Shown here piece after piece: positions 28,508 through 62,320 of a DNA stretch of 64,000 nt. The position numbers and the translations under genes were made by a program. A model generated the notes under the pieces. It had not been told where the DNA came from. It did not search any database and worked only from the letters and a program-made list of their open reading frames with translations. Position 1 is the first letter of the stretch, and every line of letters starts with the position of its first letter. Source of the DNA: a virus. Lineage: Duplodnaviria > Heunggongvirae > Uroviricota > Caudoviricetes. The stretch is from IMG/VR virus record IMGVR_UViG_3300009502_000019; one strand, given 5' to 3'.

Positions 28508-28586
28508 AGAATCCTCCTATTTTAAGTTATAGAGTATTATACCACGTTTTTGCAACTTTGTCAATACAAATTTTAACATTTTTTTG

Positions 28587-44767: not shown

Positions 44768-45082
44768 CTAATCATTGTTTGGTGGTAGATCAACATCTTC
44801 GAGTCCGCCACTTGTGTTGTTCCACTCATCTGGGAAGAAGTCAGGGATTTCGTCTTTGTTGATAAACCCTTTCCAGAAGTTTGGACCATGTGCTTCGGCA
44901 AATTCTACGATCCACTTTTCCCAAAGTTCAATGCACTCAATTCTTCGTGGATTAAATCTTGCATACTGCACCATTCCATCCGAGTTCGCGTGCATTATAA
45001 GGAAGCCGTTTGGAAACATCTTCTCGAGCGTTGTAAAATCTTTGAAACTGAATCCGGTGTCGTCTTTCATGTGTGCCCTCAT
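44768..45082 (-). CDS. Hypothetical protein (first gene of the minus-strand block)
   Basis: 104 aa. Promoter-repeat copy 4 abuts its start codon. Confidence 0.45.
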   Translation of the reverse strand: MRAHMKDDTGFSFKDFTTLEKMFPNGFLIMHANSDGMVQYARFNPRRIECIELWEKWIVEFAEAHGPNFWKGFINKDEIPDFFPDEWNNTSGGLEDVDLPPNND

Positions 45083-45083
45083 C

Positions 45084-45122
45084 CTATATTACGGCTGTTT
45101 CAAGAAAAAATTATGATATTTC
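45084..45122 (-). promoter_or_regulatory. Conserved promoter-like repeat, copy 4
   Basis: ctatattacggctgtttcaagaaaaaattatgatatttc, immediately upstream of the start at 45082. Confidence 0.55.
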
Positions 45123-45219
45123 TTATTTTTATTTGAATATATTTTTAACTATTTTTTGTAGTAATTGTAACTCGTTATGTATCAACAAGATACAGATACG
45201 AAATAATTAACGATATATG

Positions 45220-45248
45220 TTGACAGTAAGGGCTTACCATGCTAGTAT
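45220..45248 (+). promoter_or_regulatory. Near-consensus sigma70-type promoter TTGACA-N17-TAGTAT
   Basis: ttgacagtaagggcttaccatgctagtat, about 85 nt upstream of the plus-strand gene at 45333. Has the same TTGACAgTAAG core as the promoters at 50336 and 57730. Confidence 0.7.
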
Positions 45249-45332
45249 CCTCTCACGGTCAAGGTTGACCGGGCAAAGCAGTACAGCGGCACGGTAGGGG
45301 TAATCCCCACAGTAGCCAAAAGGAGAAACACA

Positions 45333-46508
45333 ATGGAGCTCTTCAAAGCGTCAAATCAGTGGGCAACACGTCCGTCAGATGAACGTTTCTGGGACCTCAA
45401 CGAAATGCAGCAAGCGTGTGAAGGGTACAAGCAGTCCGCGCAAGAAGTGCAAGTGAAGTATTCAGACCTACGGTTTGAAGCAGACGGCAGCGAGATCTTT
45501 GTTTCCGGAAAAGCTCGTATACCAGCCAAGCTTACGAACTGGGCGTTCGGCCAGGTCTGTCAGAAGGTTAACGCTCCTGCAAGCTATCTCCGCACACTCC
45601 CATCAACCCTCGCAGTCCAAAACCTTAACCATGGCTTTACCAAGCCAATTGATGAGGAAGAAAACTACGCCAAGCTTATGTTCCATAAAAATGGCAGCTT
45701 GGTTCTTCGTGCAGCAACTTCGCTCAAGTACAAGCGCGTTTGGAACGCGGACATTATCAGCAGCCTCCAGAGGTATGTTCCGATGGGGTGGCAGGTTCCG
45801 CCGGCACGTCCTGCCGGTGTTAAGAACGAACGTACCCGTATCGCAACAAGCGCAGACGTTCTCCGTCTGCAGAAGGGTGGCTTGTCCATCAATGAAGGTG
45901 ACACGATCGCACCGGCCGGACTCTACGCCTCCGATCACGACATGTTCGTGTTCATGGTTAACGAGACTAATCCGGTAAACGATGGTACCGGTCACGGCCT
46001 CGGGCGCGGGTTCTTCCTCTGGAACTCTGAGGTTGGTGCTGCCAGCGTAGGTGTCATGTCGTTCCTGTACGACGCGGTGTGCGGGAACCACATTGTTTGG
46101 GGTGCCAAAAACGTCGAAGAGGTCCGCATCCGCCACATCGGCAATGCCGACACCAAGGCGTTTTCGAGCATTCGCGCTGAGTTGATCAGCTACGCCAACT
46201 CTTCGGTATCTGATCTTGAGGCACAGATCCGCAAGGCACGTGCTTTTGAGTTCGCCGGACCTGGTGCCAGCAAGGAAGCGGTTGTTGAGGCTGTTATCGC
46301 GTTTGCCGTGAAGGCCAAGGCCCCACTCTCTCAGAAGATCATTGCCGATGCCTACGATGTGGCCGTCAAAGAAGAGCGCTACGGCTCTCCTCGGTCAGCG
46401 TGGGCGATCGCCAATGGCCTCACTGAGCTCTCTCAGGAGTGCACTTACACTGACGAAAGGATCAAGATCGACAGGGCTGCCGGCAAGGTCCTGGAAATGG
46501 TGTTTTAA
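45333..46508 (+). CDS. DUF932-family (phage/plasmid-like) protein
   Basis: 391 aa and GC-richer than its surroundings. Pattern resembles the DUF932/TIGR03299 family (…GFFLWNSEVGAASVGV…). Confidence 0.6.
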   Translation: MELFKASNQWATRPSDERFWDLNEMQQACEGYKQSAQEVQVKYSDLRFEADGSEIFVSGKARIPAKLTNWAFGQVCQKVNAPASYLRTLPSTLAVQNLNHGFTKPIDEEENYAKLMFHKNGSLVLRAATSLKYKRVWNADIISSLQRYVPMGWQVPPARPAGVKNERTRIATSADVLRLQKGGLSINEGDTIAPAGLYASDHDMFVFMVNETNPVNDGTGHGLGRGFFLWNSEVGAASVGVMSFLYDAVCGNHIVWGAKNVEEVRIRHIGNADTKAFSSIRAELISYANSSVSDLEAQIRKARAFEFAGPGASKEAVVEAVIAFAVKAKAPLSQKIIADAYDVAVKEERYGSPRSAWAIANGLTELSQECTYTDERIKIDRAAGKVLEMVF

Positions 46509-46517
46509 TAGTTAGGC

Positions 46518-46567
46518 CAAATCGTCTGCGGGGTATCGGGGGGTGCCCCGCAGACGATTTGGCCTAT
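46518..46567. terminator. Perfect 19-bp-stem hairpin (GGCCAAATCGTCTGCGGGG...CCCCGCAGACGATTTGGCC); likely terminator or RNA-processing site
   Basis: Perfect inverted repeat with an 11-12 nt loop, directly after the DUF932 stop. Confidence 0.7.
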
Positions 46568-46577
46568 CAAAATAGTT

Positions 46578-46620
46578 CAAAAAATATCATAATTTTTTCC
46601 GTAAACAGCCGTAATATAGA
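46578..46620 (+). promoter_or_regulatory. Conserved promoter-like repeat, copy 5 (plus orientation)
   Basis: aaaatatcataattttttccgtaaacagccgtaatataga, upstream of 46635 with a GAGGGGAAG RBS. Confidence 0.6.
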
Positions 46621-46634
46621 ATGCGAGGGGAAGT

Positions 46635-46856
46635 ATGAAGATCAATGTTGTTAAGCGCAGCAAGAATGTGAACCGTTTCGGAGCGAGAAAGTACACCAAA
46701 GTACCTTCTGAAACCGATCCGACAAAGTCTTACGATGTGGCTAAAATCCGGGTGCATGGGACGAAGAATTACAAGTATGTGTGCTCCTGCCCAAGCTTCT
46801 TGTTCAGACAAACCGCTTGTAAACATATAGCTTTGTTCAAGCAGAAGGAGTTCTAA
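46635..46856 (+). CDS. SWIM-type zinc-finger small protein
   Basis: 73 aa. CSCPSFLFRQTACKHI matches the SWIM CxC...CxH pattern. Confidence 0.5.
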   Translation: MKINVVKRSKNVNRFGARKYTKVPSETDPTKSYDVAKIRVHGTKNYKYVCSCPSFLFRQTACKHIALFKQKEF

Positions 46857-47041
46857 TGTCGTACATCAGCAAACCGAAAGTTAAGAAGTTTTTCAACGAG
46901 CGCGGCCGGCAGACTTCTCCGGATGGAATACACGCGATCGAAGTAAAGCTTGTGGAGTTTCTCGAGAAGATCGAGTCAAAGTGCGCTGGCCATAAGTGGC
47001 GTGTCAACGCGTCAATTGTCAACGTAACGAACATAAACTAG
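46856..47041 (+). CDS. Hypothetical small protein
   Basis: 61 aa ORF. Confidence 0.35.
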   Translation: MSYISKPKVKKFFNERGRQTSPDGIHAIEVKLVEFLEKIESKCAGHKWRVNASIVNVTNIN

Positions 47042-47053
47042 GAGACAGCGGCA

Positions 47054-47311
47054 ATGAACAACGTTCTTGAGCTTGGCATAGAGCGGTGTAGGCACGGGGT
47101 GAATGCAGAGTTTTGTTGTCAATGCAGGTACGGCAAGATCCGTGAGACAGCCGGAGAGAGGGGCGTTCCTGATACGGTTACACTGATCCTCAGGAATCAC
47201 ATGTTTATACGGCAGGTGATCCCGCGTAGGCCGGATCATCCAGATGTGTACGTTGAGAAGTGGTTGCATGGAAGCGAAACCGGCGGTTACTTCAACAAGA
47301 GAATGCGATAA
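47054..47311 (+). CDS. Hypothetical Cys-rich small protein
   Basis: 85 aa ORF. Confidence 0.4.
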   Translation: MNNVLELGIERCRHGVNAEFCCQCRYGKIRETAGERGVPDTVTLILRNHMFIRQVIPRRPDHPDVYVEKWLHGSETGGYFNKRMR

Positions 47312-47312
47312 A

Positions 47313-47651
47313 ATGGGAAAATCCAGGTGGTTGAGTGAGAGTACGGTTATCCGGTTCTTCACCAAGCTTGGTGGTAAGCTCGACTACTCAGCCACCTGGA
47401 TCTATCTTCCTGTCCGGTACGGAACAATTGTAATGAACTTATACAGGCAGTCTGAGTTACCAGGAAAAAGATCACTAAGCCTTGAAATACACGACGCTAG
47501 GTGGACCAAGCGCGGAAACGTTCATATTGTGTCTTACTGGGGCTGGCCAAGGAGTATGAAAGAGCTACAGGAGATCTGGAACGGTATACGTGAGACATAT
47601 GGAATACTTGGCGGCGTAGCATGGTTTGCAAGAAGCCCGCTACTATCTTGA
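47313..47651 (+). CDS. Hypothetical protein (internal Met start, MGKSRWLSE)
   Basis: Part of ORF 47244-47651; the start is chosen to avoid overlapping the upstream gene. Confidence 0.4.
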   Translation: MGKSRWLSESTVIRFFTKLGGKLDYSATWIYLPVRYGTIVMNLYRQSELPGKRSLSLEIHDARWTKRGNVHIVSYWGWPRSMKELQEIWNGIRETYGILGGVAWFARSPLLS

Positions 47652-47679
47652 AACACGCCTAACTCTGGAGGAACACAAA

Positions 47680-48207
47680 ATGGGATTTGATCTATACGGA
47701 GTACTTCCTGGAAAAGAGAAACCGACATTCGACTTCAAAGACAAGGAGAGCACTGACGCGTATTTCAAGTGGCAGCAGGACACTAAGGGGTCCTACTTCA
47801 GGAACAACGTGTGGTGGTGGCGGCCTCTTTGGAAGTACGTGTGCACCACATGCGGCGACATCCTAAGCGATCGTGACATGGAGCGCGGTAGCTACAATGA
47901 CGGGCATCTAATCGTCTCTAGCAAGGCCAGTAAGCTCTCAGACCGTCTCCAGAGCCTCATTGACTCAGGTGAAGTGAAAAAGTACGCTGACGCGTACAAA
48001 AAACACTTAGAAAGCCTTCCGAAGAAGAAATGTTGGCTGTGCAAGGGGACTGGCAAACGGAACGACATGGAAGTTAAGGACGGATGCAACTCATGCAGCG
48101 GTACAGGATTTACCGACGACGAAGATAAGAGTTACCCATTCAATGAAGAAAACGTTCAAGAGTTCGCTTGGTTCTGTGCGGCCAGTGGCGGATTTGAGAT
48201 CAGCTAA
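47680..48207 (+). CDS. Hypothetical Cys-rich protein
   Basis: ATG at 47680 preceded by a GGAGGAAC RBS. Several CxxC pairs (CTTCG, CWLCKGTG, CNSCSGTG). Confidence 0.5.
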   Translation: MGFDLYGVLPGKEKPTFDFKDKESTDAYFKWQQDTKGSYFRNNVWWWRPLWKYVCTTCGDILSDRDMERGSYNDGHLIVSSKASKLSDRLQSLIDSGEVKKYADAYKKHLESLPKKKCWLCKGTGKRNDMEVKDGCNSCSGTGFTDDEDKSYPFNEENVQEFAWFCAASGGFEIS

Positions 48208-48217
48208 GGAGAAACAG

Positions 48218-48754
48218 ATGCTAGTACAGGAAGCTCGGAAGTTAATGAGGAAGTATGGCCCTAGTTCGGCCATGTACCAGGGTAGTGAGAAGCAGAAGGG
48301 CGTTATTCGTCAGCTGTGTCTTTACAATCCAGATCTTACATTCCAGGAGAACATGAGGATTCTTGGGGTTAAGCAGTATAAGTCACTGCGCGATCTTGTA
48401 CTCAGGTATAAGCTTCCTAAGTACACGAATGTGAAGGTGGCAAAGAACTACCAAAGGCTTTGGGATGAGACCAAGTCCATTAGCGAGAACGCGGAAAGAC
48501 TGGGCATTAACTATGGATGCGCCAATTCAGTGAAAGCAAGGTTTAAGTTCGCTGCAAAAAGGTATAAACAGCACACCAAAACTCGTGCCAAGTGCAACCG
48601 CTTAGAGGTTATATTCCTCAGGAATCGCGGGTACACGTGGGACAGCATCGCGAGGCTCTTTGGAGTGACCCGCCAGTGTGTCCACAGCCTATTCAATTCC
48701 TCTGTCAGCTTGCTTCCTAAGGAAGCGCTGCTGCGGAAAGAAGGAACTGCTTAG
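48218..48754 (+). CDS. Putative HTH transcriptional regulator
   Basis: C-terminal GYTWDSIARLFGVTRQCVHSLF helix-turn-helix. Confidence 0.45.
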   Translation: MLVQEARKLMRKYGPSSAMYQGSEKQKGVIRQLCLYNPDLTFQENMRILGVKQYKSLRDLVLRYKLPKYTNVKVAKNYQRLWDETKSISENAERLGINYGCANSVKARFKFAAKRYKQHTKTRAKCNRLEVIFLRNRGYTWDSIARLFGVTRQCVHSLFNSSVSLLPKEALLRKEGTA

Positions 48755-48755
48755 A

Positions 48756-49265
48756 ATGATATTCTTCACGTCTGATCACCACTTCAACCACAAGAACGTT
48801 ATTAAGTACTGTGACAGGCCTTTTAGTGACGTTACGGAGATGAACGAGGCCATGATCGCTAACTGGAATGGTGTGGTGCGGCCTACGGACAGTGTGTACC
48901 ACTTAGGGGACTTCTGCTTTGGTGATGCCGGCAAGATCCTGGACCGGCTAAACGGAAAGATTCACATGGTTGTAGGAAGCCATGACAAGCAGATCTGGGA
49001 TTACAAAAGCAGGTTCGCTGAAATAGGTCGCATTTTAGAGTTTGAGGAGTTCACACTCTGCCATTATGCAATGCGGGTGTGGCCGCGGTCTCACTACAAT
49101 ACCTGCCATTTGTTTGGCCACAGCCACGGCCACCTGGAGGGGCAGGGAAAGAGCTTTGATATCGGAGTTGATTCCTGGGAGTTTACGCCGGTGTCTTTGG
49201 AGCGAGTACGAGAAGAAATGGCCAAAAGGCCTGACAACTTTAACCTAGTACAAAACAGGAGATAG
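48756..49265 (+). CDS. Calcineurin-like metallophosphoesterase
   Basis: MIFFTSDHHFNH, GDFCFG, GSHD and GHSHGH motifs. Confidence 0.7.
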   Translation: MIFFTSDHHFNHKNVIKYCDRPFSDVTEMNEAMIANWNGVVRPTDSVYHLGDFCFGDAGKILDRLNGKIHMVVGSHDKQIWDYKSRFAEIGRILEFEEFTLCHYAMRVWPRSHYNTCHLFGHSHGHLEGQGKSFDIGVDSWEFTPVSLERVREEMAKRPDNFNLVQNRR

Positions 49266-49450
49266 CAATGCATCTTACAGCAGAGCAAAAGCAGGAAGTA
49301 CACAAGGCGAAATTTAACCTGCGCGGACGGCGTGGAAAGAGGAATTGGCAAATGCGCACCAAGGAGGTCGCAGCGGCTAAGGAGGTATTGTCGAAATATG
49401 ACATTGAGTATACGCCGAAGTGGATGAAGGACGGGAAGTTATAACCGATT

Positions 49451-49669
49451 ATGGCTAATCCGATTGATAACGCTTCAGCCAGGTTCATGCTTAAAGAAGT
49501 GGATGATAGGGTATCGAGAGGGGCAAAGAGGATCCAAGTTGACGCGGCACTCAGGCTCGAGCGAGTTCGAGCTAAAGTAGTTTCGTGCCGCAGTCTTTCG
49601 AAAGACGAAGGAGTGTTTTTGCAGCAGCTGTATGAACGGTGCACAGAACTTACACGTATAAAATGGTAG
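49451..49669 (+). CDS. Hypothetical small protein
   Basis: 72 aa ORF. Confidence 0.4.
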   Translation: MANPIDNASARFMLKEVDDRVSRGAKRIQVDAALRLERVRAKVVSCRSLSKDEGVFLQQLYERCTELTRIKW

Positions 49670-49678
49670 GAGAAATAA

Positions 49679-49999
49679 ATGGGCAGAGTGGAGTACACTT
49701 TTGAAGATCTTGATCGTGTTAAGCAGCAGTACCGGACAAACTTTGAGCGCCTTATGAGCTCTGTCAGTAACATTCAGCGCAAGAAGCACCAGAAAGAGGA
49801 GAGCAGGCTCGTTAAGCTCGAAACATCCATTCAAAAGCAGCTTGGCGTGTTCATCCATGGGCCATCATGTCCCGGGAACACATCTCACTGCGGAAAGTGT
49901 AACAAGACTGATTGCGGGTTTCGGTATGTCCCGAAGAACCCGATAGAAGACGCGGGTACGAGAAAGAAATACGCGAAGAGAACGACGAAAGTAGCATGA
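49679..49999 (+). CDS. Hypothetical protein with C-terminal Cys cluster
   Basis: 106 aa ORF. Confidence 0.45.
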   Translation: MGRVEYTFEDLDRVKQQYRTNFERLMSSVSNIQRKKHQKEESRLVKLETSIQKQLGVFIHGPSCPGNTSHCGKCNKTDCGFRYVPKNPIEDAGTRKKYAKRTTKVA

Positions 50000-50205
50000 C
50001 GAGTCCAAACATAGTATTTACAACAGAGAACTTTAAAAAGTTCAAGCAGCTGTACGCGGCTACACAGAAAGGTGACGTTTTTGTGTTTGAGGGCCGCGAA
50101 GTTCTGCATGACTACGCTAAGTACGTAATTGAGTATCTAGAACCGAAGTTTAGAAAAGGAGGTACATATGGTGCACAAAAAAGCGAAGAATACATCAACA
50201 ACTAA
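49996..50205 (+). CDS. Hypothetical small protein
   Basis: Internal Met of ORF 49912-50205, overlapping the upstream stop (ATGA). Confidence 0.4.
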   Translation: MTSPNIVFTTENFKKFKQLYAATQKGDVFVFEGREVLHDYAKYVIEYLEPKFRKGGTYGAQKSEEYINN

Positions 50206-50335
50206 GCCAGTTGCCGGAACGTGCTTTTGCTGTATGGCCGACATGGTTCTTTCAGTAAGCAAGAACAAGAGATTTGCCCTTGGAATATGTGAAGTTCTGT
50301 ACGACAAGAAGCACTCTAAAGTACAAAAATAGTTA

Positions 50336-50364
50336 TTGACAATAATAAGTCGTAATGATAGAGT
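50336..50364 (+). promoter_or_regulatory. Sigma70-type promoter TTGACA-N17-TAGAGT with AAATAGTT upstream box
   Basis: aaaatagttattgacaataataagtcgtaatgatagagt, upstream of the gene at 50404. Confidence 0.65.
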
Positions 50365-50403
50365 TATGTGTAGTCACAGCAGTTCATACAAAGGAGAAAT
50401 TAC

Positions 50404-50874
50404 ATGGACGAGTTAATTAGTCATCTGTTGAAGCTTACGAATGTTCTCGAGGCACGCGGAGGCCAGATTGTGTTTCCGAATGCCATTGTTGCAACTCACT
50501 CGGCACTTCCTGGAGAGCCAGAGCACCTCGGAGTTTGGTGGTACCACTTGCCGTCAAAGAGAATGGTCTACTCCAAGGACGCGGAGACCCATCTTGACTC
50601 TGAGTTTAGAGACTCAGTTCCAGAGCTATACGCGGCAAGAATACCCAATAAAGTATTAGCGAATCGTGCCGGCTGGATAAGCGGACGGCTCGGGTACGAC
50701 AACGCCAAAAATGTGTTCGCGTTTGTATATTTACAGGAGCTCAACGGGCACTTGCCTGGATCTGTTGCGGCCGACATCCTGCAGCAGCTTCGCCGCAAGT
50801 CCGGTCACAGTATTCTCAACCTTACTGATGAAGACGGGTACTCACTCGCTGAGAGGCGTGGGAAGGCGGTTTAA
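50404..50874 (+). CDS. Hypothetical protein
   Basis: 156 aa with an AAAGGAGAAATTAC RBS. Confidence 0.5.
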   Translation: MDELISHLLKLTNVLEARGGQIVFPNAIVATHSALPGEPEHLGVWWYHLPSKRMVYSKDAETHLDSEFRDSVPELYAARIPNKVLANRAGWISGRLGYDNAKNVFAFVYLQELNGHLPGSVAADILQQLRRKSGHSILNLTDEDGYSLAERRGKAV

Positions 50875-50877
50875 TTC

Positions 50878-51606
50878 ATGGAGAACTTTCCATTCAGGGC
50901 GCCACTAGTAGTCGGCTACAAGGGCGAGATAGGGTCGTTCATACTGCAAGGGCTTCTAAGGCACATGCCTAAGGCATTAGATATCTATTGTGTAGACAAG
51001 AACGAAAGCCACGACGAGGTGACAGACCGGATTAAGCGTTCCGATGTTATCTTTCTGTGTGTTCCCATCAAAGAGACTGTGCACTGGCTCATACAGTACA
51101 GAGCACTGCTTAAAGGTAAGGTGGTATACGAGCAGACATCTTTAAAGAGCACTGTGTACAAAAACATTAACAAGATATTCGCATACAAGGCGAATTTCGA
51201 GCTCAAGTCCATGCACATTCTCTTTAGGCCGTCCGCAACGCCGAACAAGAGTGACCGAAAGGTCGCTATCATAGATCCTACCAAGTTTGGTCCAGAGGAG
51301 ACGGCGGCTATTGCAGCAATTACTGAATCGGACATACAGTGGATCGTCAACCACGCGATGCATGATCTTATTATGGCCAGGCAGCAGGCCTTAATGCACA
51401 GAGTGCTTCTTACGCTCGATCGTACTGTTGGCAACAACCCTAAGACGTACATAAGCCTTAAAGTCCGTGAGCTGTGCGATAGGATCCTGTCCGGAGACGC
51501 TGGACTATACGAGAGCATTCAGAACAACCACTACCTGCCGAAAGCTCTTAACGAGTTTAAGAGAAATCTCAGGAAGTTTAACATCAAAAACGAGTTCAAA
51601 ACATGA
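50878..51606 (+). CDS. Putative NAD(P)-binding Rossmann-fold dehydrogenase (prephenate-dehydrogenase-like, weak)
   Basis: 242 aa. N-terminal VVGYKGEIGSFILQGL resembles a GxGxxG dinucleotide-binding motif. Confidence 0.35.
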   Translation: MENFPFRAPLVVGYKGEIGSFILQGLLRHMPKALDIYCVDKNESHDEVTDRIKRSDVIFLCVPIKETVHWLIQYRALLKGKVVYEQTSLKSTVYKNINKIFAYKANFELKSMHILFRPSATPNKSDRKVAIIDPTKFGPEETAAIAAITESDIQWIVNHAMHDLIMARQQALMHRVLLTLDRTVGNNPKTYISLKVRELCDRILSGDAGLYESIQNNHYLPKALNEFKRNLRKFNIKNEFKT

Positions 51607-51756
51607 GCCTATCTGACTGTGCACACTGTTGGGAAACACCATGTTGCTGTGGGTATAGCTATAAAGACTGGTCTAAACAACGGCTGGAGGAGCAGATCGA
51701 AATGCTCAAAAGCGTACTTGCGGGAACGAACGTCTACTGCAATAAGAAGGCACAAA

Positions 51757-52218
51757 ATGGCTGATCTGTATTTGCATAGGCTTGTAAGCAATCATAGAAT
51801 CGTTGGATACGAAGCAGCAATTCAGCAGCCGGATGGCACAATTAAATGGATGTATCGGCGCTGCCACCCGAGAAGAGGTGAGCTACCAGGTTTGTTTGAC
51901 TGGAGTTTTGAGGGACTGTCTCATGACACAAAAAATATAGCCGCTGGAGTAATTGATGGTAAATTTCGGGATCAGAAACTACAAATATATGAAGGAGACA
52001 TTTTACAGTGCTACCCAAGCACGCGTGACGAGGGGCTTTATGTAGTGACATCATATGAGTACGCCGACGGGATAGATTCCAGAAGAGGTTTAAAATTTGG
52101 TAAATATGAGTTCACGCCGTGCACGCTGGTAGGAAATATCTACAATAATCTTGATTTCTATAACTCAAAATGCCGCAAAAAAGAGAGAATAAATCCATAT
52201 GTACAAGTTCAAAAATGA
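51757..52218 (+). CDS. YopX-like protein
   Basis: C-terminal LVGNIYNNLDFY resembles the YopX family GNI(Y/H)ENPELL ending. Internal Met start chosen. Confidence 0.45.
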   Translation: MADLYLHRLVSNHRIVGYEAAIQQPDGTIKWMYRRCHPRRGELPGLFDWSFEGLSHDTKNIAAGVIDGKFRDQKLQIYEGDILQCYPSTRDEGLYVVTSYEYADGIDSRRGLKFGKYEFTPCTLVGNIYNNLDFYNSKCRKKERINPYVQVQK

Positions 52219-54358
52219 AGAAATGAAAGTCCCGGCATTCATATGGTCTGCGGAGGGATCGATCGAGGAGTCTGCTCTGTCACAGATCAGCAACCTCTCG
52301 AAGCTCCCATTCGCGTTCCACCACATCGCGATCATGCCGGACTGCCACTCTGGATATGGCATGCCAATCGGTGGCGTGTTGGCCGCGGAGCGTGTGGTTA
52401 TTCCTAACGCGGTTGGTGTGGATATCGGTTGTGTTGACAAAGATACAGAGTTTCTTACTGGTTTTGGATGGAAGAAAATTTCGGAGTACAAGGATGAAAA
52501 AGTAATGGAGTACTGTCCAGATACTGGGGCAGCTAGACTTGTTACGCCTGAGAACTACATAAAGGTGCCGTGCGAAAAATTTATACATTTTAAAACAAAA
52601 TATGGCATTGACCAAATGGTTAGTGAAGATCACAGATGTTTAGTATTCCTTAACGATAGGAAGACCAACTTCTCTAAGTATCAAGTAGACTTGGCTTCTG
52701 AAATACTTCAAAAGCACTTGTCCACAAAAACAGGATACAGGCATAGATTTGTAACAACATTTACTCCGGAATTAATAACACGTGTTAGTCTTACAGACGC
52801 CGAGCTAAGAGTAATGGTAATGTTCTGTGCCGACGGCTACATAGACAGAACTCGGGGGCTACTCAGGGTCAAAAAAGATAGGAAAGTTAAGCGTGCAATA
52901 AAGCTACTGAATGATGCTAATATAAAATATATACAAAGTGTCAATAAGTATGATGGTGTAACTCATATACGATTTTCTCCTCCTATTCTTGAGAAAGGTC
53001 TAAAGCAATTTTGGAATGCTAGTTTTGAGCAGCTTCTTGTAGTAAATGATGAAGTGCTACATTGGGACGGTAACGAGAAAGATCAAGTATTCTTTACTCG
53101 GAATCGGGAAGACGCTGATTTTGTTCAATACGTCTTCTCCTCGTGTGGATTTAGGAGTGTTCTTCGGACAGATATTGGGAGAAGCGGGCTAGATAGTGAA
53201 TTAGACTATCGAGTATTTAGATCAACTAGCACTAAAATAGGAATGAACGGGTACCCAAAAACTAAAATGTCGTATGCTAAAAGTGAAGACGGGTTTAAGT
53301 ATTGCTTTACAGTCCCGTCTGGATTTTTTATCGCAAGAAGAAACGGGAACGTGTTTGCAACAGGAAACTGTGGTATGTGCGCTCTAAAGACTCCGTGGAC
53401 AACTGAGTGGATCACCAAAGAGGTCATTAAGAAGCTCTTTGGAGGCTCGAAGGAGCATCACGGCGGCATCAGAACGGTTGTACCGGTAGGGTTTAGTCAC
53501 CACGGTGAAAAACAGAACGAGCAGCTTATGCCTGAAACGCGATCAATTCGCCAGGCTTTCCTAGTCGACTCAAGTATTGTTGAGCAGGAGTACCAGTCTG
53601 CCTTGAAGCAGATTGGGACGCTCGGCGGTGGGAACCATTTTATCGAAATACAGAAGGATCAGACTGGGTTTATTTGGATCATGATTCACTCGGGAAGTAG
53701 GAACATTGGCTTTAAGGTTGCTAAGCACTACAATGACCTCGCTAAGGAAATGACTGCAAAGTGGTTTTCGTCAGTTCCAAAGGAGTCTGACTTGGCATTT
53801 CTTCCTATAGACAGCACTGAAGGTCAGAAGTACCTACTTGAAATGCAATACTGTGTCGAGTTTGCGCTGGCTAACCGCAAGCTAATGATGGAGCGCATTG
53901 TAAATGTGTTTAACAGCACTCTTGGTGGCAGCATCGACATGAGCGGAATGATAAACATTGCTCACAACTACGCCACTGTCGAAAGCCATTTTGGAAAGAA
54001 CGTTATGGTTCACAGGAAGGGAGCGACTTTAGCCAGAGAAAACACTATCGGCATCATCCCTGGATCTCAGGGCACCAAGAGCTACATCGTCAAGGGTAAA
54101 GGTAATCAAGAGAGCTTTATGTCCTGCTCACACGGCGCCGGCAGGACTATGAGCCGTACCAAGGCTGAGAACACCCTAAACCTTGAGGAAGAGCAGAGGC
54201 GTCTGGACGATCAGGGCATCATTCACGGTATCCGGACAGCAAAGGACCTTGATGAAGCTGCGGGCGCGTACAAGCCGATTGATCAGGTAATGAAGAACCA
54301 GGAAGATCTCGTCGAGATCGTGGTTGAACTGCAGCCTTTAGGGGTCATTAAAGGCTGA
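52199..54358 (+). CDS. rtcB: RtcB RNA ligase interrupted by an intein (precursor)
   Basis: Exteins match RtcB: HHIAIMPDCHSGYGMP..GVDIG|CGM...NHF...HNYA...SHGAGR. Insertion is precisely at the conserved GVDIG-CGM site. Confidence 0.85.
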   Translation: MYKFKNEEMKVPAFIWSAEGSIEESALSQISNLSKLPFAFHHIAIMPDCHSGYGMPIGGVLAAERVVIPNAVGVDIGCVDKDTEFLTGFGWKKISEYKDEKVMEYCPDTGAARLVTPENYIKVPCEKFIHFKTKYGIDQMVSEDHRCLVFLNDRKTNFSKYQVDLASEILQKHLSTKTGYRHRFVTTFTPELITRVSLTDAELRVMVMFCADGYIDRTRGLLRVKKDRKVKRAIKLLNDANIKYIQSVNKYDGVTHIRFSPPILEKGLKQFWNASFEQLLVVNDEVLHWDGNEKDQVFFTRNREDADFVQYVFSSCGFRSVLRTDIGRSGLDSELDYRVFRSTSTKIGMNGYPKTKMSYAKSEDGFKYCFTVPSGFFIARRNGNVFATGNCGMCALKTPWTTEWITKEVIKKLFGGSKEHHGGIRTVVPVGFSHHGEKQNEQLMPETRSIRQAFLVDSSIVEQEYQSALKQIGTLGGGNHFIEIQKDQTGFIWIMIHSGSRNIGFKVAKHYNDLAKEMTAKWFSSVPKESDLAFLPIDSTEGQKYLLEMQYCVEFALANRKLMMERIVNVFNSTLGGSIDMSGMINIAHNYATVESHFGKNVMVHRKGATLARENTIGIIPGSQGTKSYIVKGKGNQESFMSCSHGAGRTMSRTKAENTLNLEEEQRRLDDQGIIHGIRTAKDLDEAAGAYKPIDQVMKNQEDLVEIVVELQPLGVIKG
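52430..53368 (+). mobile_element. Intein (313 aa) with LAGLIDADG-like homing endonuclease domain inside rtcB
   Basis: Begins with Cys (CVDKDTEFLTG) and ends ...VFATGN, followed by the extein Cys (CGM). Internal LTDAELRVMVMFCADGYI resembles a LAGLIDADG motif. Confidence 0.75.
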
Positions 54359-54359
54359 T

Positions 54360-54863
54360 ATGACACAGACTAAAGAATGTTGTTGTTGTAAAAAAATTTT
54401 GGAACTTAGCTGTTTCTGCAAACAGCAGCACGGAAAACTTGGAGTACGTGGGCAGTGCAGAGAGTGCTCAAAGAAATACTCGTACAAATTCAAAAAGGTA
54501 TGCAAGGTTTGCCACAAAAGGTTTACTGGATGTAAGAAGTCTATCTATTGCTCAAAGATTTGCTGTGGAGCAGACTTTAAAAACTACTTGGATCGAAATC
54601 ATAAAGTATCTGTATCCAAGCTCAATGAATTAAATCCACAGTGGAGGGGTGATGATGTTGGTTATGCCTCACTACACGCCTGGGTGAGACGTAAGTTAAA
54701 AAAACCTAGTAGGTGTATATGCTGTCAAAAAGTAAAACCTCGTGATGTCGCAAACATAAGTGGAAAATATAAAAGAGATCTTACTGACTGGGAATGGCTT
54801 TGCCGAAGATGCCATATGGAAACTGACGGAAGAATGATGAACTTAAAAAGGAGCAAAAAATGA
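54360..54863 (+). CDS. HNH endonuclease-like, Cys-rich (probable free-standing homing endonuclease)
   Basis: 167 aa and AT-rich relative to its neighbours. Many CxxC pairs; C-terminal DVANISGKY...WEWLCRRCHMETDG is HNH-like. Confidence 0.5.
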   Translation: MTQTKECCCCKKILELSCFCKQQHGKLGVRGQCRECSKKYSYKFKKVCKVCHKRFTGCKKSIYCSKICCGADFKNYLDRNHKVSVSKLNELNPQWRGDDVGYASLHAWVRRKLKKPSRCICCQKVKPRDVANISGKYKRDLTDWEWLCRRCHMETDGRMMNLKRSKK

Positions 54864-55126
54864 AGATGGTGTGTGCCGAATGTAATTTTGAGCTTAGTAC
54901 CGAGCAAAACGGGATCTTTGTGATCGAAATGGCTGACTTCGGGCCCTACAAGATCTACTCAGCGGACCTGTATAAATGTGCTGGGTGTGGCAAAGAAACT
55001 GTGGCTGGCTTTGCAACTAACCCGTATTCGGAGCACTTCGAAGATGGGTTCCAGAATGTTTTGGAGAGGGTTAAAAGTGGCAGGCATTTCTACAACTACG
55101 GGCGGACCGGGAGATACAAGAAATGA
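54860..55126 (+). CDS. Zinc-ribbon small protein
   Basis: 88 aa with CAECN...CAGCG. Confidence 0.4.
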   Translation: MKMVCAECNFELSTEQNGIFVIEMADFGPYKIYSADLYKCAGCGKETVAGFATNPYSEHFEDGFQNVLERVKSGRHFYNYGRTGRYKK

Positions 55127-55704
55127 GTAATACCGAAAGTAAAACATGTCAAAATTGCTTCTACGCTGACGGTGGAACATGTGGAAACTGCTCTGCACAG
55201 CCGGAAGGAGCAACTACAGAGATTTCCGCTGGGTTTGTCTGCGACAACTGGAAACATCAGTTAGCTAAAGTCATTTTCCTGGATGTAGATGGTGTAATCA
55301 ATTCGCGTAGAACGTGTATAGCGTACGACGGATACCCCTGGGAAGTAGATAAGCAGGGTTTAAAGATGTTTGACCACGTTGCTATAGATCTTATTAGAGT
55401 TGCATGCGAGAAAACTGGGGCCAGGATAATCCTATCCTCTACATGGCGGCGCTCGACAGGGCACGTGAACATGGCAGTAGCAATGCATCTTCCGATGATG
55501 GATTCTACGCCTGAAAAGCTGTCCTCAGCGCGTGGCGAGGAGATCGCTATGTGGCTTCGGGACCACCCAGAAGTGGAGCAATACGCTATTGTAGACGACG
55601 ACAGCGACATGTTAGATGGACAGCTTCCATACTTTGTCAAGGTAGATCCGGATAATGGGCTGTCTTATAAGAACTACCTAAAAATATTGGAGCTGCTCAA
55701 ATGA
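55123..55704 (+). CDS. HAD-family hydrolase with N-terminal Cys cluster (possible polynucleotide 3'-phosphatase or nucleotidase)
   Basis: 193 aa with HAD motif I VIFLDVDGVIN and a C-terminal IVDDDSD. Confidence 0.5.
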   Translation: MSNTESKTCQNCFYADGGTCGNCSAQPEGATTEISAGFVCDNWKHQLAKVIFLDVDGVINSRRTCIAYDGYPWEVDKQGLKMFDHVAIDLIRVACEKTGARIILSSTWRRSTGHVNMAVAMHLPMMDSTPEKLSSARGEEIAMWLRDHPEVEQYAIVDDDSDMLDGQLPYFVKVDPDNGLSYKNYLKILELLK

Positions 55705-55934
55705 AAAAGCAATACTACATCGAGAACATTGAGCGTGGATGTGTTGGAAACTGCCTTCTGTGGTGGGTTAAGGACGGCCACGGGTACCATTGTGATATCC
55801 GTAAAGCCCACAAGTTCTCGTATAAAGAGGCCAGAGAGCTCTGCCGCGGTAGGAAGAAGTATAGGATGTGGGAAGTTTCGTACATTGACGCACACACGAG
55901 GCCACACGTAGACATACAGGGGCTGTTAAAGTGA
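55701..55934 (+). CDS. Hypothetical small protein
   Basis: 77 aa ORF. Confidence 0.4.
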   Translation: MKKQYYIENIERGCVGNCLLWWVKDGHGYHCDIRKAHKFSYKEARELCRGRKKYRMWEVSYIDAHTRPHVDIQGLLK

Positions 55935-56116
55935 CTCTGGACGACTACTGGGACGATGAAGAAGATGAGGATGATGACGACTATGAGGACGCTCCGGAAC
56001 TTGTGGACGCCATCCACAGTCACTGCATACGGTGCGCTGGAACTCTTTTTGAGCCCAGTAAATGCCAGTTTAACAAATGCCCACTGTTCGCGTATAAGCC
56101 GCAGAGAACAACATGA
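55931..56116 (+). CDS. Acidic small protein with C-terminal Cys motif
   Basis: 61 aa, DDYWDDEEDEDDDDYED. Confidence 0.35.
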   Translation: MTLDDYWDDEEDEDDDDYEDAPELVDAIHSHCIRCAGTLFEPSKCQFNKCPLFAYKPQRTT

Positions 56117-56222
56117 TCCGTAAGCTTATGTGCTTGTTCGGGCTTCACAGTAAGCACCGCTCGTTTAAGATCGTTAAAGGAGTACGACGATACTACTGCT
56201 GGAGCTGCGGTAGGAGGATAAA

Positions 56223-56486
56223 GTGAGGTTGTATAAAGTGCTTCACATTCCTTCTGAGCTGTACTGGAAACCGTCGACGCACGCGAACAAGCGAAACCTT
56301 AGTCCAAAAGGAAAAGTGTACCAATCAAAACCTAGCATTGAGTCTTGGTTAAATAGTTGTGGGAGGTTGTCGTACACAGAGTATGAGCAGTATCTTGATG
56401 GAATGGTTTGGAGAGAACGTGTAATACAAGTCCCGACTCAACTAAAGGATTGGAAGATTATTGAACTGAACATTTCGGAGGAATGA
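56223..56486 (+). CDS. Hypothetical protein
   Basis: 87 aa ORF. Confidence 0.4.
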   Translation: MRLYKVLHIPSELYWKPSTHANKRNLSPKGKVYQSKPSIESWLNSCGRLSYTEYEQYLDGMVWRERVIQVPTQLKDWKIIELNISEE

Positions 56487-56722
56487 TAATGGGATGCTAC
56501 GAGACAATAACGTTTAAGTGCCCGAATTGCGGGGAAGAGCTGGCGGCACAAAGTAAGAGTGGCCCTTGTGCGCTTGGAGTCTACTCCCATGAAAGTGTCC
56601 CTATAAATGTTGCCATGGACGCCAACCGACATGCTCCATTCTTATGCTCGTGTGGCAAATCATGGCAGTTTGTGACTGCTAGTCCTGAGGGACGCATATT
56701 TCTACCAATTGAGGAGGTGTAG
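56483..56722 (+). CDS. Zinc-ribbon small protein
   Basis: 79 aa with CPNCG...CSCG. Confidence 0.4.
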   Translation: MIMGCYETITFKCPNCGEELAAQSKSGPCALGVYSHESVPINVAMDANRHAPFLCSCGKSWQFVTASPEGRIFLPIEEV

Positions 56723-56725
56723 GAA

Positions 56726-57019
56726 ATGAGCGACTTTGAAATCACACCTGAGGCGATCATCACTGGCAGACCCGTTATCAAAACACAATGCAAGACGTGT
56801 CAATACAGAAAAGCTGACATCATGGATCGTGACGGAAGGTTTGACACATGCCGAGTTCCCGGTCCGGCTACAGGGTTGGCGGAAGCAGCTATGTATTGCT
56901 CCGTTAAACGTCGGTATGACTACCCAGGAGAGTGCCCTGAATGGGCTAAGAGGGAGCTTCCCGTTAGCATATTCGAGGTTTTGTTTAAAAAGTTGTTCGG
57001 TGGTAAGAATGGCAAATAA
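56726..57019 (+). CDS. Hypothetical Cys-containing protein
   Basis: 97 aa ORF. Confidence 0.4.
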   Translation: MSDFEITPEAIITGRPVIKTQCKTCQYRKADIMDRDGRFDTCRVPGPATGLAEAAMYCSVKRRYDYPGECPEWAKRELPVSIFEVLFKKLFGGKNGK

Positions 57020-57192
57020 GAATGCTTTAGACGACTGGTGCAGTGGCTCACAGCCGAAGTGCCCGCTTCCATCTGACATGATCTCGCGGCTACGCGACAT
57101 GCCGTCTTGGGAAGAGCGCGAGAAACGTAAGCAGCAAATGATTGATCACGGGGACGTTGATCCCGACTACTTCAACAGATAATGAGGACCAC

Positions 57193-57726
57193 ATGGCAAA
57201 CCACGAAGATCGCGAATACACAGACGCACTAGACATCTATCTGGCGCTATCAAGAACTAAGGACGGCCAGGAAGCTCGGTGCTTTCGCGTTGTTGCAAAG
57301 CGTCCAGAAGAGGATCTAGCTATGCTCGAGGCACGCGTGCGGCTGCTTGGCGGCAAGTGGAGGATCCATAAAACTGTTAACAAGCGTGACGCGGAGAAAG
57401 CTCGTATCTGGCTTATCCACAAACTAATCGACTTTCCTGAGGGCCGCGGGTTTGTGGACTCTCTCTGGAGGACCGCTCTGCTCCAGTCCGGATGTATTTA
57501 CGGGGAGAAAAAGTTTCTGCTTGACGTCGACACGAAAGAGCAGAGCAAGCTAGATGTTGTCGGAAAGTACATACCACACGAAGTTATGCTGGAAAGTGTG
57601 GAGACAGAAAACGGATGGCACTTCATTACAAGGCCATTTGACACCAGAGAGGTGTGTTCGCTTCCATACGTGTCGCTGCAGCGTGACGGGTACGTGTATG
57701 TCAAAACAGTCAACGATCAAAAATAG
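57193..57726 (+). CDS. Hypothetical protein
   Basis: Internal Met start (MANHEDREY) with a GAGGACCAC RBS. Confidence 0.45.
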   Translation: MANHEDREYTDALDIYLALSRTKDGQEARCFRVVAKRPEEDLAMLEARVRLLGGKWRIHKTVNKRDAEKARIWLIHKLIDFPEGRGFVDSLWRTALLQSGCIYGEKKFLLDVDTKEQSKLDVVGKYIPHEVMLESVETENGWHFITRPFDTREVCSLPYVSLQRDGYVYVKTVNDQK

Positions 57727-57729
57727 TTG

Positions 57730-57758
57730 TTGACAGTAAGCACTTATAGTGCTAGATT
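57730..57758 (+). promoter_or_regulatory. Sigma70-type promoter TTGACA-N17-TAGATT with AAATAGTT box
   Basis: aaatagttgttgacagtaagcacttatagtgctagatt, nearly identical in architecture to the promoter at 45220. Confidence 0.7.
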
Positions 57759-57925
57759 GGGGGAACAGTGAAGAACAAATTCGCACAGGCGCTCGGTAAG
57801 CTTGCGAGGGGAGTACCGAAGAATTACTCTCCGGAAGAGCGCAGGAAGAGATCGGACAGAATGAAAGAAATGAATAGGCTGAGGCGCGAAGCATCGCGTG
57901 CATCCAAACGCAGGAAGGAGGCGTA

Positions 57926-62225: not shown

Positions 62226-62311
62226 TGGTGGCCGAGGCGGGACTTGAACCCGCACGTCCTTTCGGACACAAGCCCCTCAAACTTGCGCGGCTGCCATTAC
62301 GCCACTCGGCC
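62226..62311 (-). tRNA. tRNA-Leu (anticodon GAG), class II with long variable arm, CCA encoded
   Basis: Hand fold: acceptor GGCCGAG/CTCGGCC, D-arm GTGGCGTAATGGCAGCCGC, anticodon stem CAAGT/GCTTG with loop TTGAGGG, variable stem-loop GTCCGAAAGGAC, T-arm GCGGG-TTCAAGT-CCCGC, 3' ACCA. Confidence 0.7.
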
Positions 62312-62320
62312 AATAAAATT

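Follow-up and report, generated by a model that had tools for sequence, protein, structure and literature searches.

The early promoters of classical T5 (PN25, P25/P26) are strong sigma-70 promoters. In phage T4, early promoters are 'uber' UP/-35/TGn/-10 promoters with extra consensus positions, and they are read by unmodified host sigma-70 polymerase (Hinton 2010, PMC2988021). The UP element of the rrnB P1 type is an A/T-rich stretch between -40 and -60 that is contacted by the alpha-CTD (PMC2988021).

We analyzed promoter-like sites in a stretch of 64,000 nucleotides (the window) from an uncultured phage of the Caudoviricetes (IMG/VR record IMGVR_UViG_3300009502_000019). Counting sequence of the same phage outside the window, 81 kb of about 200 kb were read.

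Promoter-like sites in the plus-strand block

The original prediction singled out three plus-strand sites, at 45220-45248, 50336-50364 and 57730-57758, that combine TTGACA, a 17-nt spacer and TAG..T. These are exactly the matches to the strict pattern TTGACA-N17-TAGnnT, for which shuffled sequences lead one to expect 0.21; none of 100 shuffles reached three. With the upstream module included for sites 2 and 3, the features are:

45220 to 45248, plus strand: site 1, TTGACA-N17-TGcTAGTAT, in a divergent intergenic region 84 nt 5' of the DUF932 gene (45333)
50327 to 50364, plus strand: site 2, AAATAGTTaTTGACA-N17-TGaTAGAGT, in the gap 50333-50403, 39 nt 5' of the ATG at 50404
57721 to 57758, plus strand: site 3, AAATAGTTgTTGACA-N17-TGcTAGATT, followed by a GGGGGA discriminator

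Public gene calls place all three inside short gaps between genes in the plus-strand block (45071-45332, 50333-50403 and 57727-57767), and they are oriented toward the downstream genes, which in the case of site 2 concern RNA repair (RtcB fusion, HAD_SAK_2). Directly 5' of the -10 hexamer, all three also carry the extended -10 motif TGn, which the original prediction did not mention. The extended core TTGACAGTAAG is common to sites 1 and 3, as predicted, and the identity extends to TTGACAGTAAGnnCTTAnnnTGCTAG. The motif AAATAGTT, which had been placed ahead of all three sites, precedes only sites 2 and 3; site 1 (45220) has gaaataattaacgatatatgTTGACA in this place, and AAATAATT is found 12 nt farther upstream than the usual position.

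Judged by architecture, enrichment, position, orientation and conservation, sites 1-3 are probably promoters for host RNA polymerase with a primary (sigma-70/sigma-A type) sigma factor. Host polymerase would read up to four modules, namely AAATAGTT, TTGACA, TGn and TAGnnT. At the sequence level, architecture, position, orientation and synteny all fit the earlier proposal of host-driven promoters, but the family is not specific to the plus-strand block. The match is to the housekeeping consensus. The sites are the only promoter-like ones here that would need no phage protein, and would therefore most likely serve the first wave of transcription; we infer both host sigma binding and early timing. 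In the 81 kb read, out of about 200 kb, we found no gene for an RNA polymerase; the phage might still encode one elsewhere or carry one in the virion. Several features count against the host-promoter reading. Only 9 nt separate the -10 end of site 3 from the GTG at 57768, so that the transcript would lack the Shine-Dalgarno sequence of that gene, site 1 lacks the AAATAGTT module, and -10 position 3 is a G (TAG), a departure from TATAAT.

A wider family of promoter-like sites on both strands

Using a relaxed criterion (at least 5 of 6 positions in the -35 hexamer, TG, TAnnnT and a spacer of 16-18), we found 9 sites versus 2.3 +/- 1.5 expected, and only 2 of 300 shuffles reached 7. By the public gene calls, six of the nine lie between genes and have the orientation of the gene that follows, three of these being on the minus strand, and TGn is present in all six. 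The remaining three are antisense, in line with the number expected by chance. The minus-strand members and a degenerate plus-strand copy (at 56144) are:

40206 to 40243, minus strand: AGATAGTTgTTGACT-N17-TGcTAGATT, in the gap 40083-40237 between the dCMP deaminase and Peptidase_M28 genes
28536 to 28564, minus strand: perfect consensus, TTGACA-N17-TGgTATAAT, in the gap 28508-28586, 28 nt 5' of an Endonuclease VII-like gene
10765 to 10792, minus strand: TTGACT-N16-TGcTAGCAT, in the gap 10639-10810 downstream of a UvsX-like gene
56120 to 56171, plus strand: degenerate copy, in the gap 56117-56222, GTAAGCTTATGTGCT and then TTCACAGTAAGCAC..TAAGAT, with a spacer of 16 and no TG

The claim that such sites punctuate the plus-strand block thus stands for the three flagged sites, which are intergenic there, but the family also includes minus-strand sites (40234-40206, 28564-28536 and 10792-10765). 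The -35 hexamer matches TTGACA at 6/6 positions in the three flagged sites and at 28564, and at 5/6 (TTGACT) at 40234 and 10792. The -10 hexamers of the six sites are TAGTAT, TAGAGT, TAGATT, TAGATT, TATAAT and TAGCAT; the spacer is 17 nt long in five of them and 16 nt in the sixth. UP-like, -35, TGn and -10 modules are all together at 50327-50364, 57721-57758 and 40206-40243, while 45220 has -35, TGn and -10 but no AAATAGTT at the usual position. Over the -35 hexamer and the first part of the spacer, the degenerate copy at 56144 is identical to site 3 in 13 of 14 positions.

Two more family members were found just outside the window in the same phage. One (L015 1601/1611) has two tandem copies of AAATAGTT in 10-bp phase followed by TTGACA-17-TGcTAGGCT; the other is AAATAGTTcTTGACT-17-TATAAT, and the two head a tRNA and RNase P RNA region. 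At least eight such predicted promoters are present in the 81 kb read, on both strands, heading gene cassettes (DUF932; an RtcB RNA-repair module; small ORFs; Peptidase_M28 and NAD-salvage; Endonuclease VII; the tRNA/RNase P RNA region).

Relatives and the spacer sequence

In a relative (L004) that encodes a DUF932 protein with 79% identity, TTGACA-N17-TAGACT is found upstream of the ortholog, syntenic with site 1. In the alignment, TATGTTGACA and TAG are kept and the spacer has diverged. The leader 3' of site 1 contains the following element:

45288 to 45317, plus strand: conserved stem-loop GGCACGGTAGGGGTAATCCCCACAGTAGCC, directly before the Shine-Dalgarno sequence

This hairpin is conserved in L004, which is consistent with transcription of the leader stretch after site 1. 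L004 also has TTGACA-17-TAGCAT just downstream of a gene with a dCMP_cyt_deam_1 domain, comparable to the minus-strand site at 40206-40243; the two deaminases are only weakly homologous (26%), and their genes are followed downstream by different ones. Additional sites in L004 and in a further contig, L010, are AAATAGTTcTTGACA-17-TGgTATAAT and AAATAGTgTTGACA-16-TATAAT.

The spacers themselves could be operators. Under this explanation the sites are host-type promoters, and the sequence GTAAGnnCTTAnnnTGCT, shared by sites 1 and 3 and partially present at 56120, is bound by a phage regulator that turns the promoters off once the early phase is over. Of the 17 spacer positions, 12 are identical between sites 1 and 3, and these include a GTAAG/CTTAC palindrome. 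In 81 kb we found the composite pattern at just three places, all of them intergenic on the plus strand. Two L004 copies are identical to each other over the 45 nt shown and have a spacer different from that of this phage, so that spacers are alike inside one genome but not from one genome to another. Furthermore, one L004 promoter has a perfect 15-bp palindrome across the -10 hexamer, and 5 of 6 sites contain inverted repeats whose arms are 5 bp or longer, versus a background of 15%. However, recent duplication of a promoter cassette would explain the within-genome similarity equally well. The palindromes vary in sequence and position between sites, some arising from the consensus hexamers themselves, and a count of GTAAGNNCTTAC allowing one mismatch showed no overall enrichment (2 versus 1.8 expected). 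A cognate regulator was not identified, the candidate HTH protein at 48218-48754 being an orphan. We regard a spacer operator as unlikely, and the preferred reading of plain host primary-sigma promoters is retained.

The upstream module

The motif AAATAGTT lies at about -44 to -37 (for the single copy also placed at -46 to -38) and has 2-3 further A residues on its 5' side, forming an A/T-rich block at the position of an UP element; in tandem cases a second copy lies 10 bp upstream. Among IMG/VR contigs, 113 of 144 unique AAATAGTTnTTGACA occurrences (78%) are followed by TAnnnT after 16-18 nt, the spacer being exactly 17 nt in 103 cases. When all occurrences in the same DNA are counted, TAnnnT is found at 17 nt in 72% of TTGACA hexamers with AAATAGTT versus 17% of those without it. 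The same promoter architecture is present in more than 100 other viral contigs, and the spacing from AAATAGTT to the -35 hexamer is exact across many unrelated uncultured phages. By its sequence context AAATAGTT looks like a promoter add-on, present also in many other uncultured phages.

These data bear on the possibility that the sites are chance sigma-70 consensus matches in AT-rich intergenic DNA, without function. Consensus-like strings are indeed common, as a generic promoter scan gave 29 weak matches versus 22.8 expected in the region, and three of the nine sites found with the relaxed criterion resemble chance hits. The strict pattern, on the other hand, exceeds expectation (3 versus 0.21), its three sites are all intergenic and co-oriented, the syntenic L004 site is kept while flanks and spacer have diverged, and AAATAGTT predicts a correctly spaced -10 hexamer in 72-78% of cases in other phages. 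Chance matching is therefore highly improbable.

The A-rich AAATAGTT block resembles the proximal subsite at which an UP element is contacted by the alpha C-terminal domain. Like an UP element, AAATAGTT is rich in A-tracts, has the matching position and lies 5' of a sigma-70-type -35 hexamer. It differs in its invariant G and fixed TAGTT, and in that it also precedes the 45-bp element described below, which does not look like a sigma-70 promoter, at another distance. The exact conservation of TAGTT, tighter than in typical, degenerate UP elements, counts against the UP reading. It would be expected if AAATAGTT were the site of a dedicated sequence-specific transcription factor, of host or phage, acting in both promoter families, and not an UP-like alpha contact. 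The tandem copies in 10-bp phase and the occurrence of AAATAGTT ahead of both sigma-70-like sites and the 45-bp element, at differing distances, also favor such a factor. Against it, AAATAGTT turns up again in many unrelated uncultured phages, among them T5-like contigs that have few genes in common with the present one; this recurrence points to contact with a conserved host component. In addition, the position of the motif (-46 to -38) and its A-tract agree with the proximal UP consensus AAAAAARNR at 7 of 9 positions. A dedicated factor thus seems rather doubtful to us, and an alpha contact as part of a host-read promoter remains the preferred interpretation.

The 45-bp element and the phage sigma factor

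The 45-bp element had been described as distinct from the sigma-70-like sites and as lying on the minus-strand block. It has a plus-strand copy at 46582-46619, however, and shares the AAATAGTT module with the sigma-70-like sites. Its copies are:

46570 to 46619, plus strand: AAATAGTT and then an element copy (AAATATCATAATTTTTTccgtaAACAGCCGTAATATAG), upstream of the gene at 46635
45084 to 45154, minus strand: element copy (45121-45084) and AAATAGTT (45154-45147), separated by 25 nt (45122-45146)
20668 to 20717, minus strand: element copy with AAATAGTT 4 nt upstream (20706-20709 = CAAA)
13478 to 13515, minus strand: element copy with AAATATTT as upstream motif
27864 to 27901, minus strand: element copy upstream of replisome-organizer and DnaB genes

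The copy at 45084-45154 shares an intergenic region with site 1 and points away from it. A division of the two families by strand block is not tenable, since both occur on both strands and adjoin each other (45084-45121 and 45220-45248; also 46582-46619).

In the 45-bp element the AAATAGTT module and an A/T-rich -10-like end (TAATATAG) are kept, and the -35 hexamer and spacer are replaced. The consensus of sigma-28/FliA promoters is TAAAGTTT-n11-GCCGATAA (PMC2859248). Read as TAATTTTT-n10-GCCGTAAT, the element agrees with 11 of 16 sigma-28 consensus positions, which is a resemblance only, as the spacer is one nt short (10 versus 11) and the core is CGT versus CGA. A 185-aa protein of the sigma-70 family is encoded by the phage about 5 kb to the left of the window; its region 4 is SigF/FliA-like and not primary-like. 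The 45-bp element may well be the target of a phage-directed polymerase. The phage sigma gene lends support to the multi-class idea behind the proposed two-family temporal program, but the assignment of classes to strand blocks was wrong.

Polymerase carrying this 185-aa sigma, and not the primary sigma factor of the host, might instead read the sigma-70-like sites, which would then be middle or late and not early promoters. The protein does have region 4, the part that reads the -35 hexamer, and the TAG-type -10 hexamer is common to the sites of this phage and L004. Yet the sites match the universal housekeeping consensus almost perfectly (TTGACA, 17 nt, TGn, TAnnnT), many unrelated phage contigs have sites built the same way with TATAAT, and region 4 is of the SigF/FliA kind. 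Moreover, some promoters must act before any phage protein exists. We therefore consider it quite improbable that the phage sigma factor reads sites 1-3, and continue to favor the primary sigma factor of the host.

Tentatively, AAATAGTT might be a discrete portable module placed before promoters of different sigma factors, of host sigma-70 type in one case and possibly, for the 45-bp element, a phage SigF/FliA-like one in the other. If so, it would represent a widely shared, phage-favored contact for core RNA polymerase (the alpha C-terminal domain), apparently undescribed as a motif.

Comparison with T4 and T5 promoters

As in T4 early promoters, an A-rich upstream element is joined to a strong -35 hexamer, TGn and a -10 hexamer, positions outside the hexamers are conserved, and the sites are scattered in the genome ahead of small, nucleotide-metabolism and tRNA genes. 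The gene content of this phage is also T4-like in part (gp32-like, UvsX-like and fused gp46/47-like SbcCD proteins, Endonuclease VII, RNA ligase). Unlike in T4, the -35 hexamer is here exactly TTGACA, the -10 hexamer is mostly TAGnnT and not TATAAT, and the upstream module takes the form of a discrete 8-mer (AAATAGTT) that is in some cases repeated in tandem. A further difference is that homologues of Alt, MotA and AsiA were not detected among the proteins scanned (PHROG and Pfam scans of window plus-block proteins and most larger minus-block proteins; precomputed Pfam hits and a few scans for proteins outside the window). The 45-bp element follows the same logic as T4 middle promoters, where the -35 region is also replaced (MotA/AsiA sigma appropriation).

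Marine T5-like IMG/VR contigs, which encode a DnaB-like helicase, an NAD-dependent ligase and a D5-like regulator, contain AAATAGTTcTTGACA-N17-TATAAT 3-4 times in one orientation. The upstream module and its spacing are as in sites 2 and 3; the differences are the TATAAT hexamer, a lower GC content (33-41%) and few genes in common with this phage. Together, the sites look like ordinary strong sigma-70 promoters, built like the early promoters of T4 and T5.

Probable sigma-70-like promoters in the window and its flanks

Genes in the window occupy the minus strand from 1 to ~45,070 and the plus strand from 45,333 to ~62,060; they then return to the minus strand, where they continue through a tRNA cluster. 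Within this layout, TTGACA-N17-TAGnnT occurs exactly three times (0.21 expected from shuffled sequences), at the three places where the original prediction had put it, and all three sites carry TGn ahead of the -10. Additional DNA of the same phage was joined to the window via its outermost genes, with 7.1 kb gained to the left of it and 9.9 kb to the right, and the right flank was found to hold two further family members.

Sigma-70-like promoters, with intergenic gaps according to public gene calls
45220-45248, plus, site 1, in gap 45071-45332
50336-50364, plus, site 2, in gap 50333-50403
57730-57758, plus, site 3, in gap 57727-57767
40234-40206, minus, AGATAGTTgTTGACT-17-TGcTAGATT, intergenic
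28564-28536, minus, TTGACA-17-TGgTATAAT, intergenic
10792-10765, minus, TTGACT-16-TGcTAGCAT, intergenic
gap 56117-56222, plus, degenerate copy TTCACAGTAAGCAC...TAAGAT, intergenic
right flank, tandem AAATAGTTtaAAATAGTTcTTGACA-17-TGcTAGGCT, at the head of a series of tRNA genes
right flank, AAATAGTTcTTGACT-17-TATAAT, heading a GIY-YIG gene, then RNase P RNA and more tRNAs

A relaxed pattern (-35 with at least 5/6 matches, TG, TAnnnT, spacer 16-18) identified nine sites, versus 2.3 +/- 1.5 expected from 300 dinucleotide shuffles. Six of them are intergenic and aimed at the next gene. The other three are antisense to local genes, a number that fits chance expectation. At the third -10 position, G is preferred in the window sites and also in L004, part of a related contig.

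The sequence evidence supports the sigma-70 promoter reading well. Two of the sites had been said to share an extended core, and TTGACAGTAAG is indeed common to sites 1 and 3, with a likeness that reaches out to TTGACAGTAAGnnCTTAnnnTGCTAG. The upstream module AAATAGTT, supposed to precede all three sites, is not found at site 1, where the sequence is gaaataattaacgatatatgTTGACA. Confinement of the family to the plus block applies to sites 1 to 3, which do lie in plus-block gaps, but not to the three minus-strand members. The original observation is largely correct; its errors are the assignment of each family to one strand block and one statement on a motif.

At site 3 (57753-57770, plus), the -10 ends 9 nt before a GTG at 57768, with a GGGGGAA ribosome-binding site in between, in the discriminator. 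Because of this distance, the transcript would start only 1-4 nt before the GTG. The 52-aa ORF at 57768 would then be translated either from read-through transcripts only, or as a leaderless message.

An upstream module common to two promoter families

Exact copies of AAATAGTT were found 13 times in 81 kb (window plus flanks). Ten copies directly precede, in the same orientation, a sigma-70-like site, the 45-bp element or a variant of this element; the remaining three are within genes, close to chance expectation. This placement indicates that the two families have an upstream module in common and are unlike in the -35/spacer region. The 45-bp element, AAATATCATAATTTTTTnnnnnAACAGCCGTAATATAG, has five copies, of which all but one are on the minus strand.

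Copies of the 45-bp element
13478-13515, minus
20668-20705, minus
27864-27901, minus
45084-45121, minus
46582-46619, plus

The element had been regarded as separate from the sigma-70-like family and specific for the minus strand. It is distinct in its -35/spacer region, but it has AAATAGTT in common with the other family, and the copy at 46582-46619 is on the plus strand. As the sigma-70-like family in turn has minus-strand members, neither promoter family is bound to one strand.

In four of the five copies, only 3-5 nt separate the end of the element from a purine-rich, Shine-Dalgarno-like stretch that follows it, a short gap that would suit a promoter with a very short leader. Parsed as TAATTTTT-n10-GCCGTAAT, the element agrees at 11/16 positions with the sigma-28/FliA consensus, TAAAGTTT-n11-GCCGATAA (PMC2859248). 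L004 has its own diverged version, TTTTTT-N13-TAATATAG, located 27 nt beyond a sigma-70-like promoter, with both ahead of one gene.

A phage sigma factor

Homologues of RNA polymerase, MotA, AsiA or Alt were not found in the regions examined. The left flank encodes a sigma-70-family protein:

L016 (same phage) 19053-19610, ~5.1-5.6 kb left of window position 1, minus, 185-aa sigma-70-family protein (Pfam, PHROG, PDB)

The assignment is based on Pfam Sigma70_r4 (1.5e-8), a PHROG sigma factor family match over residues 14-182, and PDB matches to sigma factors including SigF and FliA. This protein likely reads one of the non-host promoter classes. In a reasonable model, host-sigma promoters would fire first, and the phage sigma would next read the 45-bp element ahead of the replication genes. 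Alternatively, the phage sigma could serve late genes outside the window.

Conservation in relatives

DUF932, the first gene of the plus block, was used to find relatives. Informative comparisons came from L004 to L006 and L010 alone. Most DUF932 homologues (L001-L003, L008, L009, L011 and L014) were discarded as comparators, as they belong to unrelated genomes without synteny, L014 being a Tundrisphaera prophage. One of these distant contigs, L003 (54% GC), has four near-identical promoters of its own, cTTGACAccgaatcgaaa..ggTAGAAT (6013-7375, plus), each with an ATG 6 nt past the -10, a leaderless-mRNA arrangement.

L004 to L006 are parts of one 216-kb contig, with a DUF932 protein 79% identical to that of the window and TTGACA-N17-TAGACT at the position syntenic with site 1. 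In an alignment of the divergent intergenic regions of the window and L004, conservation covers TATGTTGACA as well as TAG in the -10, and not the spacer. L004 has a second promoter copy 2.9 kb downstream, identical over the 45 nt compared, and an additional promoter, AAATAGTTcTTGACA-17-TGgTATAAT. A TTGACA-17-TAGCAT just downstream of its dCMP deaminase-domain gene resembles the 40234 site of the window; similarity between the deaminase genes of the two phages is weak (26%), and a different gene follows downstream. In L010, DUF932 is 61% identical, Peptidase_M28 and UvsX-like homologues are in common with the window, and a Metallophos+SMC_N fusion is of similar size. Ahead of the L010 DUF932 operon is AAAAATAGTgTTGACA-16-TATAAT.

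The DUF932 leader contains a stem-loop (45288-45317, plus; GGCACGGTAGGGGTAATCCCCACAGTAGCC), directly upstream of AAAAGGAGAAA and before the ribosome-binding site. It is kept in L004 and could be a translational or stability element. Rfam gave no match for the leader and the intergenic regions around site 1. Directly after the DUF932 gene is a hairpin with a perfect 19-bp stem (46513-46565, GGCCAAATCGTCTGCGGGG...CCCCGCAGACGATTTGGCC) and no T-tract on either strand, which may separate two transcription units, either as a factor-dependent terminator or as a site of RNA processing.

Spacers are alike within a genome and unlike between genomes, as the two L004 copies match each other and not the window. 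The spacers of sites 1 and 3 are alike at 12/17 positions, including a GTAAG/CTTAC palindrome, with a partial copy at 56120. This pattern fits either recent duplication of a promoter cassette or co-evolution with a genome-specific regulator. Inverted repeats with arms of at least 5 bp were present at five of six sites, compared to 15% of random background windows. They vary in sequence and position between sites, and some stem from the consensus hexamers; a role of the spacers or inverted repeats as operators is possible. A candidate regulator with a C-terminal HTH (48218-48754) is an orphan without a useful PDB match (single-sequence AlphaFold pLDDT 46). Separately, L004 has a perfect 15-bp inverted repeat (CCTCCATTTGTGGTA / TACCACAAATGGAGG) across the -10 and ribosome-binding site of AAATAGTTcTTGACA-17-TGgTATAATGGGA (11191-11240, plus), which looks like an operator.

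Distribution in viral metagenomes

IMG/VR was scanned for exact AAATAGTTnTTGACA. This pattern was found in at least 120 viral contigs (L018-L137); TTGACAGTAAGNNCTTANNNTGCTAG had no IMG/VR match. Among the matches listed, 113/144 (78%) unique AAATAGTTnTTGACA occurrences were followed by TAnnnT at a spacer of 16-18, in 103/113 cases at exactly 17, and TATAAT was the commonest -10, accounting for most of the 113. In the ~0.96 Mb of listed matches (146 occurrences), TAnnnT was present at 17 nt for 72% of TTGACA with AAATAGTT versus 17% without.

Several contigs among the matches listed (L092, L048, L054, L095) have three or four co-oriented copies. The gene content of such contigs includes a DnaB-like helicase, whose nearest counterparts are in T5-like Vibrio and Aeromonas phages, as well as an NAD-dependent ligase and a D5-like regulator. 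Some AAATAGTTnTTGACA contigs look T5-like. Only 25/120 contigs among the matches listed have even one recognisable homologue in common with this phage. As AAATAGTTnTTGACA is absent from 40 kb of the T4-like Pelagibacter phage HTVC008M, it is not general to marine T4-like phages. A full-text search found no description of the motif in the papers it covered.

Gene content and host

Identical assemblies of the phage, of up to 202,599 bp, come from several lake and peat metagenomes. The copies in L007, L012 and L013 are 100% identical to the window and give no polymorphism signal. At the DNA level no known phage is close: megablast with 8 kb of sequence from around the sites gave no match among 50,697 phage records. 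Protein matches are 24-33% identical and scattered over phages of Bacillus, Listeria, Gordonia and others; no single host group emerged from these best matches.

The minus block encodes proteins of replication, recombination and nucleotide metabolism (DNA polymerase A, primase, DnaB-like helicase, gp32-like, UvsX-like, fused SbcCD, Endonuclease VII, RNA ligase, NAMPT and PRPP synthetase). In the plus block, DUF932 is accompanied by many small ORFs and by an RNA-repair set.

RNA-repair and RNA ligase genes
52199-54358 and 55123-55704, plus, RNA-repair module downstream of site 2 (RtcB fusion; HAD_SAK_2)
28587-29534, minus, separate RNA ligase gene

In the 719-aa RtcB fusion, an N-terminal PhoH-like ATPase region is joined to RtcB. 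A pattern scan found no IMG/VR relative of this protein, and the nearest homologue is 57% identical. Three tandem ~51-nt repeats (27283-27439, GGGTTTCGG.GTCTGAAACCCCGCTGAAACC) within a replication-initiator/replisome-organizer gene (26868-27827, minus) may be origin iterons. A publicly called 100-aa ORF (62228-62530, plus) overlaps two opposite-strand tRNA-Leu genes and is probably spurious.

A class A bacterial RNase P RNA (Rfam RF00010, 134 bits, E 9e-42) was identified at L015 (same phage) 3118-3406, ~6.8-7.1 kb beyond the right end of the window. It is only 289 nt long, surrounded by more than 25 tRNA genes, and adjoins a CCA-adding enzyme gene. Bacillota typically have the class B form, and the class A RNA therefore argues against a Bacillota host.

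Interpretation and comparison with known promoters

If the promoter reading is correct, the sites provide a usable transcription-unit map for an uncultured ~200-kb lake/peat phage. The host would then have promoters of the standard sigma-70 type (TTGACA/TGn/TAnnnT) along with strong Shine-Dalgarno sites, and hosts with other promoter types, such as Bacteroidota, would be ruled out. With a well-spaced -10 in about three quarters of the cases listed, AAATAGTT next to TTGACA is a possible cheap marker of strong host-type promoters in uncultured phages. It could also be a starting point for work on upstream promoter elements outside E. coli.

The sites are elements of an ordinary kind, host-type phage promoters with an upstream enhancer-like block. 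Phages that depend on the host polymerase are expected to have such promoters, which will not surprise a specialist. Only the wide distribution of AAATAGTT-TTGACA in viral metagenomes goes beyond expectation. Because phages sharing few genes carry AAATAGTT, contact with a conserved host component would be more economical than a dedicated factor, and the alpha C-terminal domain is the obvious candidate; we infer both steps from sequence. At -46 to -38, proximal UP elements have the consensus AAAAAARNR, and AAATAGTT with its leading A residues agrees with it at 7/9 positions. Full UP elements have a two-subsite layout, which tandem AAATAGTT at a 10-bp phase fits.

Overall, the sites are built from an A-rich block (-46 to -37), then TTGACA, 17 nt of spacer, TGn and TAnnnT, with a G-rich discriminator in one case. 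The same architecture is described for strong early promoters of phages that are transcribed by the host polymerase in its unmodified form. T4 early promoters have the same UP/-35/TGn/-10 build, with extra consensus positions (PMC2988021).
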